This document shows positions 3,947 through 61,583 of a stretch of 64,000 bases of DNA, one piece after another. Each line of letters opens with the position of its first letter. Within the stretch, counting starts at the first letter, position 1. Under the pieces are notes generated by a model that saw nothing but the letters and a program-made list of their open reading frames with translations, was not told where the DNA came from and ran no database searches. This DNA is from a virus, in the IMG/VR virus record IMGVR_UViG_3300044716_001642, positions 1 through 64,000 of that record. The stretch is one strand, 5' to 3'. Position numbers and translations under genes: made by a program.

Positions 3947-4029
3947 TTGGCGCGCTTCTTGAATACCTACTCACCGGGCCTGGCACGCTTCTTGATTGGC
4001 GCGTTACCTGGCCTGGCATGACGCCTGCT
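3947..4029 (+). promoter_or_regulatory. Three sigma54-like boxes at 33-bp period
   Basis: GG at 3949, 3982, 4015; first two end TTGA, last ends CTGC. Confidence 0.6.
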
Positions 4030-4104
4030 TACATCCCAAAAAAATAATTCAAAAAAAATAGAAATAATTCTTGCCTTCTTTGTGATCTGTGGTATCTTAA
4101 AAAC

Positions 4105-4437
4105 ATGACAACGAACAACACCACCGCAGTAAACCCGAACGAAATCCCAGCCTCCACGACCCTCGTGAAGTTTACCTATGCCAAACCGCTTAAAGGCGGC
4201 GGCGTGAGTGTAACCCAGCGCGTCATCCGCATGGGGCGCGAGGTCATCCTGCCACTTCTCGCAGGCGGCTCGACTTGGGGCAAGAGCAACAACGGAAACC
4301 GCTTTGTGGCTCTCTATAAGAAGGACACAGAACAACGCCGCGAATACCTGCAAGGGGTTGAGGAGCAGGAGGATGGACGCCTCAAGATCAAGCGTTTCGA
4401 CTTCGGCTACATCAGCGATCTCCAAGTGCTGGCGTAA
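4105..4437 (+). CDS. Hypothetical early protein, paralog of 9363..9662
   Basis: Shared LAGGS/T-WGK, YLQGV and KRF motifs; promoter TTGCCT-N16-TATCTT 6 nt before ATG. Confidence 0.75.
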   Translation: MTTNNTTAVNPNEIPASTTLVKFTYAKPLKGGGVSVTQRVIRMGREVILPLLAGGSTWGKSNNGNRFVALYKKDTEQRREYLQGVEEQEDGRLKIKRFDFGYISDLQVLA

Positions 4438-5135: not shown

Positions 5136-5255
5136 ATGAAAGCAATAAACGCCATCGAAAAACTCATCCCCTACTTGTTCGCCTCTGTCTTCGCCCTTGC
5201 CATGTTCAATCTTTTCTTTGCATTCGCTGAATATGTCGAACGCCACGGGCTTTAA
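5136..5255 (+). CDS. Small membrane protein (start revised to 5136)
   Basis: TTGCAA-N16-TACAAT promoter; hydrophobic IPYLFASVFALAMFNLFFAFA. Confidence 0.55.
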   Translation: MKAINAIEKLIPYLFASVFALAMFNLFFAFAEYVERHGL

Positions 5256-5300
5256 TCTCTCAATCACCAACCAACAAAAAACAAAAAACAAAAAAACACC

Positions 5301-5483
5301 ATGACAAAAAAACACTTCACAGAAATTGCAAAGAGCATCAATCTTCAATACGCGCAAGCTGCTACAACCCAAGAGCTTAAATTGATTGAAAACATTGTGG
5401 ATGATCTCTGCTCTACCTTCAAAAATCTCAACAACTTGTTCGACAAGAATCGTTTCAAACAAGCCTGTGGAATAGAAAAATAA
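5301..5483 (+). CDS. Hypothetical protein
   Basis: ATG after C/A-rich leader; MTKKHF-type phage small ORF. Confidence 0.65.
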   Translation: MTKKHFTEIAKSINLQYAQAATTQELKLIENIVDDLCSTFKNLNNLFDKNRFKQACGIEK

Positions 5484-5882: not shown

Positions 5883-5945
5883 AAATAATCCTTGACGCGC
5901 TCGCCACTAACCACTAAACTAAAAACTCAATCAAATAACCTCACC

Positions 5946-6446
5946 ATGAAATTCACTAAAAAAACAGACCCTCTAAACTTCATCCAAGCAAAAGCTGTCC
6001 TTCAAAAGATCGAAGATCAAAAGCCCTACTTCTCTCTGACTGGGCGCATTGTTGAAAATGGGCGCGAATCTGTGAGCGGCGCAATTCACGATGAAATTCT
6101 TGCCGCCTTTCCAGAACTCGATGACCTTGTTGCCATGCACCTTTCCGACATTGACGGCAGACCCATGAACTCTTTTGAAAATGGCAAATACTGGGCAGGA
6201 TTTACAAAATGGGAAAACGGCAACGCTGAAATTCTCGCAAATCATTTTAGGATTGGAAAACAAAGATCGCAAGACCTTATGTATGAGACTCTTGTTGATA
6301 AATGCAATGACATTAAAGCTGATACTGGCGAGGATGTTCTTCCAGAAACTCTCTTCAAAGAGTTCCACGATAGGCAGTTAAGAAGATGGAAACAAGAGGC
6401 TGATAATGTCATTAAAAAATACTCTCTCGAAATCGTTGCAGATTAA
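5946..6446 (+). CDS. Hypothetical early protein (start revised to 5946)
   Basis: ACC-ATG start; globular composition; promoter upstream. Confidence 0.7.
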   Translation: MKFTKKTDPLNFIQAKAVLQKIEDQKPYFSLTGRIVENGRESVSGAIHDEILAAFPELDDLVAMHLSDIDGRPMNSFENGKYWAGFTKWENGNAEILANHFRIGKQRSQDLMYETLVDKCNDIKADTGEDVLPETLFKEFHDRQLRRWKQEADNVIKKYSLEIVAD

Positions 6447-10596: not shown

Positions 10597-10892
10597 GAAA
10601 TACAACCTCACAAGATAAGTGGCTAATGGTCTTAAACTTAGCTGGACAACTGCATGATGTTCTCTTTGATGGAAAAGATGTTTATGACTACAATTTTCCA
10701 ACAGAAAAAATTCATAAGATTAAAACTCTCTGCGGATTAGTCATTGACCATGATACACTTGCAAAAATTTGTTCAGAGAAAATGATTGGTAAGAAAGTTG
10801 TATCTTCTGCATTTGATGGTAGATGGATGACAGAGGATGTGAATACGCCTTTCACTCTCTCGGTAGCTTCTGAAACCTACTGGTCTTCATAA
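10593..10892 (+). CDS. Hypothetical protein
   Basis: ATGA overlap with previous gene. Confidence 0.65.
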   Translation: MRNTTSQDKWLMVLNLAGQLHDVLFDGKDVYDYNFPTEKIHKIKTLCGLVIDHDTLAKICSEKMIGKKVVSSAFDGRWMTEDVNTPFTLSVASETYWSS

Positions 10893-10956
10893 AGCGTTAA
10901 GCCCCAGCGGTTTAGGGGCCCCTCCGGCCCGTAAGTGGTTGGTATTGAACATGTTA
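10890..10956 (+). repeat. 67-bp element, copy 8 (degenerate)
   Basis: Core GGGCCCCTCCGGCCC with 25-bp arms. Confidence 0.8.
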
Positions 10957-11092
10957 TGCATGCGTATACATATACCCATAAGTGTATGCAGAACTATCCC
11001 CGCCCTCATTATTTGCATTATTTACGGCCACCTAGGCCGCTATTTGCCCAAATTTTTTTTCTTTTTTTTGAATTTTTATTTTGAAATTTTTA

Positions 11093-11121
11093 TTGACAAT
11101 GGTGTAAAAAGACACTATATT
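11093..11121 (+). promoter_or_regulatory. sigma70-like promoter upstream of RNA locus
   Basis: TTGACA-N17-TATATT. Confidence 0.7.
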
Positions 11122-11200
11122 AGTTTTATAAGGTAGTTGGTTCCCGATGATCCAATGGGACTGGGCTTACTCGGTCGAAAACAAAATCGGAAATTGATTT

Positions 11201-11228
11201 TTGACATTTTATTTTTGTTTGGTAGATA
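11201..11228 (+). promoter_or_regulatory. sigma70-like promoter upstream of ncRNA/tRNA unit
   Basis: TTGACA-N16-TAGATA. Confidence 0.55.
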
Positions 11229-11243
11229 GAGTAGTAATACCTA

Positions 11244-11505
11244 TCCCTGTGCAATCGAAAGAGGAGTGGTGCTTAATAAGGCGTTTCGTGTGCATTCGTA
11301 TGCATCGCAGCCGCTTGCCAAATAGATTTTTAGTAGACCCGCCATGCCTCTCACTTGCAATGAGTAGTTTCTAAAGTACACGGCAACTAAGTAAGTTGAT
11401 GCACACTTTGGCGGGTGTTCTTTTACCAAGCGCAGATGCTCGCAAAGCTCTACCGCGATGGGCGACAATGCAATGTTTCCGGAAACAACATTTAACCCAT
11501 AGGGA
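11244..11505 (+). ncRNA. Unassigned ~260-nt structured RNA candidate
   Basis: Closing helix TCCCTGTG/CATAGGGA; internal 8-bp helix ACCCGCCA(11337)/TGGCGGGT(11409); several hairpins; promoter upstream; no credible sense ORF. Confidence 0.55.
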
Positions 11506-11538
11506 ACTTCAGAAGAAGTCTTGGTAATAATTCTAAAA

Positions 11539-11721
11539 CTGGAATGTTAGCTTAGAGGCAGCTATCATCTAAGGAGTGGGACTGGACGTGGAGAACTGGT
11601 AATTAGTATGGACACAATTCAAATAAGCCATACATCCTATTTATAGGTGCGGAGATGACCGTGAATTGCGTTTCACAGGACGAAGAAATTCGTAACCCCT
11701 TTGGCGTAAAAGCACACCAGT
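11539..11721 (+). ncRNA. 23S rRNA GTPase-associated-centre (L11-binding domain) mimic with 126-nt insertion
   Basis: CTGGAATGTTAGCTTAGAGGCAGCTATCATCTAAGGAGT...GCGTAAAAGCACACCAGT aligns by hand to E. coli 23S 1052-1108 at 43/57 positions, with five compensated pairs. Confidence 0.8.
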
Positions 11722-11731
11722 AAATTTTATA

Positions 11732-11817
11732 TGCGGGTTAGACTAGAGGTCAAAGTCAACGGGCTCATATCCCGTAGTCTAATATAGACACGTTTGGTTC
11801 AATTCCAACACCCGCAA
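11732..11817 (+). tRNA. tRNA-Met(CAT), initiator-like, long variable arm
   Basis: Acceptor TGCGGGT/ACCCGCA; anticodon arm ACGGG-CTCATAT-CCCGT (3 G-C pairs); A11-U24; 16-nt variable region; no encoded CCA. Confidence 0.8.
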
Positions 11818-11826
11818 ATTTTTTAA

Positions 11827-11899
11827 CGAATAGTGGCCTAATGGCTAAGGCACCCCGTTTGGGGCGGAGGGATTGGAAGTTCAAGTCTTCCCTATTCGA
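11827..11899 (+). tRNA. tRNA-Pro(TGG)
   Basis: Acceptor CGAATAG/CTATTCG, A73; loop TTTGGGG; T-loop TTCAAGT. Confidence 0.85.
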
Positions 11900-11904
11900 T
11901 TGAC

Positions 11905-12426
11905 TTAAATCTTCTCCGTAATTTTATTCTTTATTATGGGTGCTATTTTAGTTTCAAATGCTTCATCCATAATCTGTTTTTGTTTTTTTCTACTGCTTAC
12001 TTCTGAGACATTTATAATAAAAAAAGAATAGTTCATATCACACAGCTCTCTAAATTTTATACTATCTTTAAGTTTTACATCCTCAAGCTTCTTCTCTCCG
12101 AATATTGGGAAATAGTGAACTGGTCCATTTACTTCTACCGCTAAAGATATTTCTGGTATGCAAATATCTATCTCAAGACCAGATTGTAAGGTTTTCCTAT
12201 CTGACTGAATGACATTCAAAGAGGGAAATACTTCTTTTATTTTTAAGAGAAGATAATCCTCTGGAAAGCTTATATTTCTTTTGCAACCTTTATTGATATG
12301 AAAATTTTTATTAAAATACCTCATACGGCAAGATTTGCTACAGAATCTTTGATTATGCTTTGCCTTGTTGTGCTTCCTATCTTTCAAGGGTTTAAATAAT
12401 ACATTACATTCTGGACAGTTTATCAT
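11905..12426 (-). CDS. Putative homing endonuclease (Zn-finger + PD-(D/E)XK / DUF559-like)
   Basis: CPEC...FCSKSC; LEIDICIPEISLAVEVNGPVHY; abuts tRNA-Pro. Confidence 0.75.
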   Translation of the reverse strand: MINCPECNVLFKPLKDRKHNKAKHNQRFCSKSCRMRYFNKNFHINKGCKRNISFPEDYLLLKIKEVFPSLNVIQSDRKTLQSGLEIDICIPEISLAVEVNGPVHYFPIFGEKKLEDVKLKDSIKFRELCDMNYSFFIINVSEVSSRKKQKQIMDEAFETKIAPIIKNKITEKI

Positions 12427-12485: not shown

Positions 12486-12552
12486 CAAACTTCTCATAAT
12501 CAATAACTTAAGGGCCCATCCGGCCCGTAAAGCCCTCTGCGTCAACAGGTTA
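12486..12552 (+). repeat. 67-bp element, copy 9
   Basis: Core GGGCCCATCCGGCCC with 25-bp arms. Confidence 0.85.
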
Positions 12553-21398: not shown

Positions 21399-23516
21399 CT
21401 ACAACGCATCAATCATGTTGATATAATCTGTGAGCGCTTTCTTGTAAGTGTCTGGATTGTATTCGTCTGAAACTGGCAAGACGAGAGGATACTTTTTAAT
21501 GATCTCGTTTACAAGATTCGTAAACTCACTCATTTCCTTGTCGATAGATGCTTGAGCATCAGCAATGAATGACTTATTGGCAAGGCGAATGAGGCTAATA
21601 GTTTTACTATCCATGCACTTCGATTGATCTTGAATGATTGGCTTGATTGTAGCCATTGCTTTGCCAACAATATGATTGGCAGGGAGAAGCGTAACCAATG
21701 ACTTGAGAGTTTCTGGCAACCCGCGCATTTCCCAGTTTTTAGAAAAATCGCGGAACTTACTCTTGAAGTTGTCCCAAGAAATAGCATTGATTCCCTTGTT
21801 GATCTGGTCTTGAAATTTTTTGTCTTGAACAAGATTGCAGAACTTAACAACAGGCTTGCCGTCGAAAGTCGAATCATTGAACTTGTCATAATCGGCTTTT
21901 GGAAGGAACAAGGCGGCAGTCTTCTGCTTTGATTCGTCAGAGAGAATCGCAATGATCGGGTCAACATAATTTGCTTGAAGTTGATCGTAAACCTTATTCG
22001 ATACCGAGGGGAACAGGATGAACTTTTCTGTGTCCTTGTGCGAGGCGGCGTTGTAAAACTCAACGCAATCGTGAAACCCATAGTTGCGACCAGAGCGCAT
22101 ACGGAATGTGCCTTTGGCAGTTGCGCCAGTTGAAGTCGAGGTCTTACCCTTGCTTGGAACTTTAGGCAGGGAACTTGTCAACACGAACTCTCCCACCCAT
22201 CCAGTTTCTTGAATGAACTTGGCTTTTTCAGAATCCTTGAGGATGTAGAAAGCGTATGAGGCATAGCTATCATTCTTTTTCTTTTCGAGGATGACTTGCT
22301 TTGCGCGACCAACGCCGCCCACCTTCAAATCGTCCAAGAATAAAAATGCTTTTTTATTCGGCTCAACATTCTTCTCTCCCTCGCTAACATTGATTTTCTT
22401 GTTCCATGATGCCGTGGCATACAGATTAACCTTTGCATCCTTAACCTGCATTGCAGTTGCGGTCAAAGGCTTGCCGTTCCAGTTGAGCTTGAGCGTATCT
22501 GGTAGGAAGGTGAAAGATTCGCGGAGGCTTTTCAGCTTGAGCTTTGCTTCCCAAGTGTTGCCCTTGAAAGCGTCCATGTCGGCTTGCATTTTTGGCAGGA
22601 AGGAGTCAACGATCTGTTCCAGCTTGGTGAACATCCTTGTCATCGTGAGGTCATCCAGTTGGATTGCCTCGCGGGATGGAGTGATGCTGTATTCACCGAT
22701 TGGAACATGGATAACAAGATTGCATCGGAGAAGTCTATCGAACTTGGCGAACTTTTTATTCTCCAAGAGAGTTTGAACAGGTAGGCTGTAACCCACGCCT
22801 CCCATGACAATGACAGGAGAACCACTGCCCTCGTAGATTGCGAAGTTGCTTGTGCCGCCATCAAAGGTCATAGCTTGAGGCGTGAAGTTGATATTCTTGG
22901 CAATGCCATCACAGAAAACTCGCGGCTTGATTGAGAAGAATCGGTAAGCTCTTTCGACCTTCTCGTTGAATTGAGAAACATGACGATCAGGGCAAAGGAA
23001 CTTTACCTCAAAGCCATTGCGTTCAGTAGTTGCCTCGCTCTTAATCAGTCGAATGTCGGGAAGTCCATTTGATTGCAGGGAGATGAAGTATTGCGACTTT
23101 GTGCCATTGAATCGGGAGATTGCTTGGAAGTTATTCACAAGCGAGCAAAGCGACCACTTGCCAACGCCGAACCCGCCAATGAGGTCATTGTTGCCGCGCT
23201 TGCTGGATGCCCCAATGATTGAGTAAATGCGGATCATTTGATCGTGAGAGATACCCACGCCATTGTCAACGAAACGAACATTGCCGTCGAGTCGTGAGGG
23301 AAGATGCAATTCCCATCCGAGGTCTTGTGTCCCTGCCTCGATAGTAGCATCAACGCAATTTGCACCCACTTCACGAAGGACTGCCATCGTTGGGTCTTGA
23401 TAGAGATTGGCAATCATGCGGAAGAAGTGAGCGATGTTCTTCTCGTCGATACCTACGGAAATAGTCTCGAAGTTGCCGTTGAATTGAACTTTGTTGGTTT
23501 TGTCTGCGATAATCAT
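21399..23516 (-). CDS. rIIA: rIIA-like protein with N-terminal GHKL ATPase
   Basis: LYQDPTMAVLREVGANCVDA, DNGVGIS, GGFGVGK, TPSREAI; upstream of rIIB. Confidence 0.85.
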   Translation of the reverse strand: MIIADKTNKVQFNGNFETISVGIDEKNIAHFFRMIANLYQDPTMAVLREVGANCVDATIEAGTQDLGWELHLPSRLDGNVRFVDNGVGISHDQMIRIYSIIGASSKRGNNDLIGGFGVGKWSLCSLVNNFQAISRFNGTKSQYFISLQSNGLPDIRLIKSEATTERNGFEVKFLCPDRHVSQFNEKVERAYRFFSIKPRVFCDGIAKNINFTPQAMTFDGGTSNFAIYEGSGSPVIVMGGVGYSLPVQTLLENKKFAKFDRLLRCNLVIHVPIGEYSITPSREAIQLDDLTMTRMFTKLEQIVDSFLPKMQADMDAFKGNTWEAKLKLKSLRESFTFLPDTLKLNWNGKPLTATAMQVKDAKVNLYATASWNKKINVSEGEKNVEPNKKAFLFLDDLKVGGVGRAKQVILEKKKNDSYASYAFYILKDSEKAKFIQETGWVGEFVLTSSLPKVPSKGKTSTSTGATAKGTFRMRSGRNYGFHDCVEFYNAASHKDTEKFILFPSVSNKVYDQLQANYVDPIIAILSDESKQKTAALFLPKADYDKFNDSTFDGKPVVKFCNLVQDKKFQDQINKGINAISWDNFKSKFRDFSKNWEMRGLPETLKSLVTLLPANHIVGKAMATIKPIIQDQSKCMDSKTISLIRLANKSFIADAQASIDKEMSEFTNLVNEIIKKYPLVLPVSDEYNPDTYKKALTDYINMIDAL

Positions 23517-27105: not shown

Positions 27106-27119
27106 ATATATAATAAACT

Positions 27120-27204
27120 CAGGCCGGGAAGGATTCGAACCTTCGGAACCTTTCGGTTCTGCAGTTTAGTAAACTGCTGCAATCGGCCGCTCTGCCACCG
27201 ACCC
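27120..27204 (-). tRNA. tRNA-Ser with anticodon ACT
   Basis: Anticodon arm GCAGT-TTACTAA-ACTGC; long variable arm GAACCGAAAGGTTC; TTCGAAT; G73. Confidence 0.85.
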
Positions 27205-27273
27205 ATGAACTATTAAATTAATTTTTATTTATTCAAACTTATTGTACTTCTTCATTACACTCATTTATTATAC

Positions 27274-31461: not shown

Positions 31462-31536
31462 TGGTAGGGGCGATGGGAGTCAAACCCACTTTCCTTCCGT
31501 TATGAGCAGAGCGCATGATCGATATGCTTCACCCCT
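31462..31536 (-). tRNA. tRNA with CAT anticodon (Ile2 or elongator Met)
   Basis: AGGGGTG/CGCCCCT, loop CTCATAA, encoded CCA; lacks initiator G-C triplet. Confidence 0.8.
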
Positions 31537-61327: not shown

Positions 61328-61583
61328 ATTTCTTTCTCTCTAGTCTAACTTCTTTCCTCTTCAAGTCAAGTTTTTTGATTTGTTCTTCGAGTTTCTTATT
61401 TCTGTGTTTTCCAAAATCGAAACGAAAAGCCCCAGTGGAGATTACTCGCTCTTGGAGTCTTGAAATCTGTCTATCCAGCTTTTGTAATTTTTTAAAAATG
61501 GTCGAAAGTACACGACTCGAACGTGTGCCACTCGTACGTCTACGGCTGTTCTCTCCTCCTAAACTAACTTTCGAAATTTTCAC
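61320..61583 (-). CDS. Basic hypothetical protein
   Basis: Coupled ORF. Confidence 0.5.
   Translation of the reverse strand: MKISKVSLGGENSRRRTSGTRSSRVLSTIFKKLQKLDRQISRLQERVISTGAFRFDFGKHRNKKLEEQIKKLDLKRKEVRLERKKYG

Follow-up and report, generated by a model that had tools for sequence, protein, structure and literature searches.

Why would a large phage carry a copy of a ribosomal site directly in front of its transfer RNA (tRNA) genes? The question is raised by positions 11538 to 11721 of a 64,000-nt stretch (positions 1 to 64,000 of the uncultured-virus record IMGVR_UViG_3300044716_001642), which we analysed over its full length and refer to as the window. We found that this segment is almost certainly the gene for a stable structured non-coding RNA, one member of a family of phage RNAs that look like the GTPase-associated centre (GAC) of 23S ribosomal RNA (rRNA). 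The two ends of the RNA pair and in doing so rebuild the 58-nt centre (the top of helix 42, called H42 here, with H43 and H44), including its tertiary triple. The family is large, is carried by large tailed phages and is apparently undescribed.

As a reference we used the E. coli 23S rRNA of rrlH (NC_000913); the E. coli sequence that a preliminary description of the locus had used is exact when checked against it. Window positions 11539–11577 together with 11704–11721 align without gaps to E. coli 23S 1052–1108 at 43 of 57 positions, as had been counted by hand, and the runner-up among 39-mer matches to 23S 1052–1090 in the 64 kb has 23 of 39 identities as compared to 29 of 39 at the element. 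The 14 differing positions are 1053, 1054, 1056, 1062, 1070, 1076, 1082, 1086, 1089, 1090, 1097, 1101, 1105 and 1106. Ten of these form five compensated pairs, 1053-1106 (C-G>U-A), 1054-1105 (A-U>G-C), 1062-1076 (G-C>A-U), 1082-1086 (U-A>C-G) and 1090-1101 (A-U>U-A), each of which we verified base by base and found as listed earlier; the other four differences are unpaired (G1056A, A1070G, A1089G and U1097A). A1067 (11554) and A1095 (11708) are retained, and the insert that splits the domain is indeed 126 nt long (11578–11703). The extent of the element had been given as 11539–11721, which holds except that its 5' limit is one nt short: the pair A11538-U11721 adds to the closing stem, and the element therefore spans 11538–11721 (184 nt). 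The 134-kb record holds a single copy of the element and, in agreement with the statement that no other rRNA sequence flanks it, no LSU rRNA and no second 23S-like stretch. On comparative evidence, the window element has the fold of the 1051–1108 domain, both in its secondary pairs and in its tertiary triple. Its parts are the following.

11538–11542 (+): 5' strand of the closing stem (top of H42; 23S 1051–1055), which pairs with 11717–11721 as A-U, C-G, U-A, G-C and G-C.
11544–11568 (+): H43 look-alike (23S 1057–1081), with A1067 (11554) in its loop; pair 1062-1076 is A-U, not G-C.
11569–11577 (+): turn with C1082-G1086, then G1087 A1088 G1089 U1090 (GAGU, the type found in Firmicute 23S).
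11578–11703 (+): lineage-specific 126-nt insert, which ends with the linker UUUG at 11700–11703.
11704–11716 (+): H44 hairpin (23S 1091–1100) with the loop GUAAAA, in which A1095 is 11708, then A1101 C1102 A1103.
11717–11721 (+): 3' strand of the closing stem (23S 1104–1108).

A1101 C1102 A1103 close onto U1090 and G1087, and the closing stem consists of five pairs, with A/A at the two outermost positions of the family stem. The partners of the tertiary triple are C1072 (11559), C1092 (11705) and G1099 (11712), which is the C/C-G state. The insert opens on a GGG/CCC base helix (G11578-C11699, G11579-C11698 and G11580-C11697) and contains no Rfam motif. A copy of the sarcin-ricin loop was looked for and rejected, with none in the insert at up to 4 mismatches and none anywhere in the record at up to 2 mismatches. 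A hairpin with an AGGAAUC-type 7-nt loop recurs in some other inserts, and its likeness to the sarcin-ricin loop is superficial.

Relatives were collected by two pattern scans. A degenerate H43 pattern run against IMG/VR returned 36 stretches, of which one (L029) is real 23S and the others match rRNA over 32–37 nt only; a second, looser pattern with the H43 stem positions free returned 92 stretches with 65 distinct elements that have both halves. Together, the two scans give about 70 distinct relatives on viral contigs. We found that all members follow one plan: a closing stem, H43, the 1082-1086 turn, GAGU, an insert, the H44 hairpin, ACA and the complement of the 5' end. The closing stem (1049–1055/1104–1110) has up to 7 bp, with up to four Watson-Crick pair types per position. 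The insert measures 45–338 nt, has a helix at its opening and lies invariably between U1090 and G1091; its first four pairs are formed in 64, 62, 59 and 48 of 64 sequences with 3–4 pair types, and the linker UUUG is found at its end in 59 of 64. Across the family, pair 1057-1081 is A-U in 57 members and C-G in 7, pair 1058-1080 is U-A in 31, G-C in 19, A-U in 11, U-G in 2 and C-G in 1, pair 1062-1076 is G-C in 56 and A-U in 5 (A-U being the state of the window element), and pair 1082-1086 is U-A in 34 and C-G in 27 (of 64). U1101 of rRNA is A throughout, and the junction positions 1056 and 1086 are purines only, a variation that has been described for rRNA (PMC1919483). Hardly any change is seen in the H43 loop with A1067, and this includes the cultured phages, which were found without pattern bias. 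The surroundings of A1095 are the least conserved part of the core: A1095 is present in 59 of 64 sequences and 1096 and 1097 are free to vary, and the A1095 of the window element therefore does not reflect a family rule. Some relatives have two nearby copies (L167 at 3997–4343 and 5205–5385, L199 at 174–367 and 371–516, L095 at 362–681 and 698–872), the second of which is often more divergent.

To the preliminary description, the fold was under selection as a free-standing RNA, and a search for homologs with a check of their covariation was proposed. We measured pair statistics on 27 aligned members, with the window and its relatives L004 and L034 excluded. Standard pairs occupy 96.9% of the cells as compared to 73.7% in shuffled alignments, with 0 of 500 shuffles reaching the observed value, both sides change in 13 of 20 pairs, and the covariation score is 0.601 as compared to at most 0.16 when the partners are slid. 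The triple covaries as well. Two cultured-phage copies with U1072 also carry U1092-A1099, and on that basis we scanned for U1072 variants, reading 1092 and 1099 unconstrained. C1072 goes with C1092-G1099 in 59 of 59 cases, and U1072 goes with U1092-A1099 in 12 of 13, the remaining one being U-G. Positions 1072/(1092-1099) correspond to a known base triple of the rRNA domain, reportedly that of Conn, Gutell and Draper in 1998. The relatives thus covary strongly and all carry the insert, and the proposed selection is supported by compensatory changes in about 70 contigs and 10 cultured phages and by the covariation of the triple.

A covariance model built from 27 phage sequences with the lineage of the window left out (R1) matches the window at 11536–11723 with 97.3 bits (E 1.6e-27, model positions 1–162), its sole match in the 64 kb. 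In E. coli 23S, the only R1 match is at 1049–1110 with 59.4 bits (E 2.9e-16), where the model is matched over its full length with the insert skipped. In cultured phages, R1 gives ten matches at 66–102 bits, in Astolliot, UNO-G1W1, pf16, Aeromonas 4_4572, XacN1, XaC1, BF, GAP32, CBB and fHe-Yen9-04; the sites are unannotated except for a small opposite-strand hypothetical open reading frame (ORF) in UNO-G1W1. Of these phages, Astolliot and pf16 infect Pseudomonas, BF Serratia, GAP32 Cronobacter and CBB Pectobacterium. About 37 contigs from bacterial genome bins and isolates of many phyla are also matched. Vibrio phage 2.275.O, matched at 37.6 bits, is a candidate member. A match in Paenibacillus phage Pd_22F was dropped as a genuine 23S segment with homology over 1358 nt; this record (L098, GenBank MZ092003.1, 83.3–84.7 kb) has at least 1.3 kb of real 23S near the genome end, which is host DNA or assembly contamination. 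When 11100–11730 was compared to GenBank phages by blastn, there was no match, and relatives were found by the short conserved core only.

The genes that surround the elements are tRNA genes. The 65 elements have 232 tRNAs within 3 kb on their own strand and 0 on the opposite strand; a tRNA lies at most 300 nt away in 39 of 65 elements and none lies that close in the other 26, and the gap is 30 nt or less in 28 flanks, often 1–9 nt. There is no conserved protein neighbour (the largest cluster is found at 5 of 64 loci), and the RNA is therefore autonomous. Contigs longer than 100 kb make up 30 of the 80 listed, two copies of the element are present in some phages, and the assignments of member contigs range over many bacterial phyla, in keeping with a universal target. 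The promoter-driven unit upstream of two tRNAs that the preliminary description had proposed stands as to the tRNAs, both of which lie directly downstream on the + strand, and a sigma-70-like site is seen, as a consensus match only. The corresponding features are these.

11093–11121 (+): sigma-70-like site TTGACA-17-TATATT, 11/12 by consensus match only, heading the non-coding island some 410 nt 5' of the element.
11732–11817 (+): tRNA(CAU), 10 nt 3' of the element, with a long variable arm.
11827–11899 (+): tRNA-Pro(UGG).

The tRNA(CAU) has an 86-nt body and a 13-nt variable arm, which is unusual for Met/Ile2-type tRNAs. As to where the family comes from, enterobacterial rRNA has GAAA at 1087–1090, and the GAGU type is present in the genuine Paenibacillus 23S fragment. 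Because GAGU at 1087–1090, one insertion site and one junction are found everywhere, the sequences argue for a single origin followed by spread from phage to phage rather than repeated host capture.

We then compared the element to known systems. No Rfam 15 family covers it, either at gathering or at E up to 10, which answers a check that had been suggested, and on 20 member loci Rfam finds only tRNAs and one local LSU match (31.4 bits as compared to a cut-off of 50). We found no description of a phage RNA of this kind in the literature searched, which excluded subscription-only papers. The element is like the 23S centre (E. coli 1051–1108) in that its helices are in register, its loops, including A1067, and its U1060/A1088 and 1082-1086 pairs correspond, and its base triple shows the same kind of covariation. 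In contrast to the 23S centre, the phage RNA is a 184-nt free-standing gene with its own 5-bp closing stem and no rRNA around it, has a 126-nt insert between 1090 and 1091, has A in place of U1101 and has a relaxed H44 loop. A bacterial 23S gene (LSU_rRNA_bacteria, RF02541, about 2.9 kb with flanking domains) has no match in the 134-kb record. An intron-bearing 23S fragment (group I/II) was also rejected, with no intron family in the window or the 20 member loci and with inserts down to 45 nt.

Like the L10 leader (RF00557), the element mimics, as an off-ribosome RNA, a protein-binding site of rRNA close to the stalk base. However, ribosomal protein (r-protein) leaders are cis-regulatory, belong to cellular mRNAs and imitate rRNA loosely, whereas the phage RNA stands alone, among tRNAs, and is near-exact down to the tertiary contacts; an r-protein leader was rejected, as no leader family of Rfam is matched over 10800–12100 at E up to 10 and tRNA genes, not an r-protein gene, lie downstream. 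Like pseudo-ToxI of phage PhiTE (PMC3475682) and like phage tRNA arrays, it is a small phage RNA with a host RNA as its model, located in a tRNA cluster. In contrast to both, what it imitates is an rRNA domain, not an antitoxin or a tRNA. We know of no cognate toxin for it. Like the abiF RNA motif (RF03085), which shares its strand and transcription unit, it is a putative protein-binding fold carried without a partner protein; unlike that motif, it has the GAC structure, which is unrelated, and the association of the two is limited to one lineage.

Taken together, these data lead us to favour, with a little less than even confidence, an in-trans imitation of the centre off the ribosome, with host uL11 as its likely ligand. 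On sequence grounds, the phage RNA probably works as a decoy of the centre, and its direct ligand is quite possibly, on a tentative assignment, uL11. The RNA would be transcribed with the tRNAs and released by tRNA-processing enzymes, with an RNase P cut at the tRNA at 11732 setting its 3' side, and in the infected cell it would act in trans by capturing whatever recognises the fold of the centre. Host uL11 would be the most likely direct ligand, and with ribosomes or RelA deprived of a working uL11 stalk base, the stringent response would be damped during infection. Nutrient-limited hosts would otherwise mount this response, and it is relaxed when uL11 function is lost. The isolated 58-nt domain reportedly binds thiostrepton and, tightly and on its own, uL11 (in the work of Conn and of Wimberly in 1999). 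We favour uL11 because the isolated domain is a complete high-affinity site, the U1060-A1088 pair is kept and a wide host range needs a universal partner. The pair U1060-A1088 is recognised by uL11 in rRNA (PMC2175356). The phage record encodes no uL11, MazG or RelA/SpoT, and any ligand would therefore be the host's. A more specific form of this imitation, which we regard as possible and rather doubtful, is that the RNA recruits host uL11, and perhaps more stalk proteins, into a free mini stalk-base particle that intercepts the docking partners of the centre; its catch would be RelA with tRNA, a translational GTPase or a centre-directed toxin.

Several observations weigh against an off-ribosome imitation that binds uL11. 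The insert leaves the core 2 nt from A1088, a contact of uL11, where it might hinder binding. Members of the family are relaxed in the H44 loop, the side that meets EF-G and thiostrepton, with variation at 1095–1097, and the whole factor-binding face is therefore not under rRNA-like constraint. Part of the invariance of U1060, A1067, A1088 and most loop bases is built in, as the search patterns fixed these positions; U1060, A1067 and A1088 are retained in the cultured phages found by blast, which are free of this bias. Minimum-free-energy folding misses the rRNA fold, as the constrained fold is 13.2 kcal/mol worse in the window and worse by a median of 11.65 kcal/mol family-wide. The same enforced pairs are 6.9 worse for the real E. 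coli fragment, though its predicted fold is largely native-like, and the free-energy test therefore does not discriminate. Within a short lytic cycle, little uL11 may be free for capture.

The main rival is a decoy for a centre-directed toxin or defence, in which the free copy soaks up a host weapon that modifies, cuts or blocks H43/H44 and so spares the ribosomes on which the phage depends; we consider it unlikely. By analogy, it would parallel phage tRNAs that act against tRNA-cutting defences and phage RNAs that imitate antitoxin RNAs, and the element lies within tRNA arrays, on the tRNA strand; phage tRNA arrays serve as counter-defence spare parts. A toxin for the exact site exists, as Tre23 ADP-ribosylates H44 at 1095–1098 (PMC8661411); however, the H44 loop that it modifies is the least conserved part of the core, and a stoichiometric decoy would be a poor answer to a catalytic toxin. 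An orphan abiF-type RNA is found 120 nt upstream in the same island, with no Abi_2 protein in the record, abiF RNAs neutralise the AbiF toxin by binding it directly (PMC12373285), and imitation of an antitoxin RNA by a phage has a precedent (PMC3475682), but the abiF link is lineage-limited, with 3 loci in about 1 Mb searched. No anti-phage system that targets the centre was found in the literature searched, where this topic was touched on only, and phages of very different hosts fit a universal ligand better than a sporadic defence. Improbable in our view is a factor trap, in which the RNA, alone or loaded with host uL11, displays the factor-docking face of the stalk base and sequesters a translational GTPase (EF-G, IF2, RF3, BipA, LepA), RelA or the tRNA elbow, which would retune host translation. 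EF-G is reported to bind thiostrepton-domain oligoribonucleotides in vitro (Munishkin and Wool, 1997). The essentially invariant H43 loop includes A1067, which stacks on the elbow of the A/R tRNA in RelA complexes (PMC5829649). However, the H44 loop, a part of the factor contact, varies at 1095–1097, factors have a low affinity for the isolated domain, and with no sarcin-ricin-loop copy in the insert or the record only half of the factor site is imitated.

Two further explanations seem to us very improbable. In one, the RNA ties up the uL10-(bL12)n stalk complex, which lifts the feedback repression of the rplJL-rpoBC operon. The junction of H42, H43 and H44 is retained in the element, and mimicry of the neighbouring H42 region is known from the rplJ leader; however, the element has just 5–7 bp of H42 with freely varying sequence and no kink-turn, and the L10 leader family is not matched at E up to 10. 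In the other, which we rate about as low, the element has no function of its own and is a cis module for folding, processing or stability of the tRNA transcript, or else a decaying fragment of captured host rRNA. The tight juxtaposition to tRNAs would agree with a cis module, but a processing module needs neither near-exact rRNA loops nor a covarying rRNA triple, and 26 of 65 members lack a tRNA in the adjoining 300 nt. Compensatory changes that maintain the structure across dozens of lineages are not expected of a decaying fragment, and repeated host capture would not yield one insertion site and one junction everywhere. The covariation disfavours both forms of this explanation.

The GTPase-associated centre is among the best-studied and most conserved sites of the ribosome and is a target of thiopeptides and of at least one interbacterial toxin. 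A widespread phage copy that is selected down to the tertiary triple would mean that an off-ribosome version of this site is of benefit to many large phages. If the mini stalk-base particle is real, it would be the first case in which a virus encodes a functional imitation of a domain of rRNA, and it would add a new layer to the takeover of translation or to counter-defence. The identity of the ligand would reveal a new means of shutting off the stringent response, a new class of ribosome-directed defence together with its antidote, or a new handle on translation factors, and since there are cultured carriers that infect Pseudomonas, Aeromonas, Xanthomonas and enterobacteria, the question is directly testable. 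For RNA structural biology and engineering the family is useful as well, since it supplies dozens of naturally varied versions of a textbook RNA fold that tolerates inserts at a single fixed position.

In the window, about 840 nt between the end of an ORF at 10892 and the tRNA gene at 11732 are without a credible ORF, and the GAC look-alike is the 3' end of this non-coding island, whose fold as a whole has an uninformative z-score of 0.39. Just past the promoter-like site there is a conserved non-coding motif (11128–11190, +), which is also found in L034 (12714–12784), where it is apart from the other modules, and in L004 (5083–5122); it has apparent compensatory changes between copies and no Rfam match. 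The abiF-type RNA (RF03085) at 11338–11416 (+) scores 29.8 bits, under the cut-off of 37, because of a 47-nt loop insert, and its homologue in L004 scores 49.6 bits, above the cut-off. As no Abi_2/AbiF protein is encoded in the 134-kb record, we consider it an orphan antitoxin-like RNA, which possibly serves as counter-defence against host AbiF. Co-occurrence with abiF was rejected as a family-wide clue, being confined to the window, L004 and L034. A conserved non-coding block at 11417–11530 (+), after which the element follows, is also present in L004 and is missing from L034; it contains a perfect hairpin around UUCCGGAA and shows apparent compensatory changes. A palindromic repeat bearing GGGCCC, at 10912–10934 and 12508–12530, brackets a cassette that comprises the two tRNAs and a minus-strand ORF of 173 aa besides the RNA island, and an AT-rich TTGACA-type block stands after each copy of the repeat.

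There is a weak hint that the element family is expressed. Four freshwater metatranscriptome studies have contigs of a close relative that span the insert and the element's 3' half, at a depth of up to 64, with DNA carry-over possible. These contigs come from an L004-like relative with flanks unlike those of the window and show presence in RNA libraries only; because of the different flanks, missing cover over the flanking genes is uninformative, and the gap in cover at 11511–11563 corresponds to sequence that is replaced in this relative.

The source virus is a large tailed phage. Its 134-kb record is about 70% complete, has 35% G+C, comes from lake-water metagenomes and encodes an rIIA-like protein, a split DNA polymerase, a DnaB-type helicase, a ribonucleotide reductase and a transfer-messenger RNA (tmRNA). 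The rIIA-like protein lies at 21399–23516 (-) of the window (phrog_612, E 2.7e-76); rIIA is a classic counter-defence or lysis-inhibition gene in large lytic phages. The tmRNA is found at 77898–78311 (-) of genome C1 (L129 at 5899–6312), and its ARAGORN tag has 25 aa and ends in ALAA; with this tmRNA, the phage carries several translation-related RNAs. The window contains ten tRNA genes. Three tRNAs stand at 61499–61573 (-), 27119–27205 (-) and 31465–31536 (-): ARAGORN assigns a four-base anticodon (gacg) to one and calls another a tRNA-Ser with the anticodon ACU, and the one at 31465–31536 is an extra tRNA that was found by Rfam and is not in the ARAGORN list.
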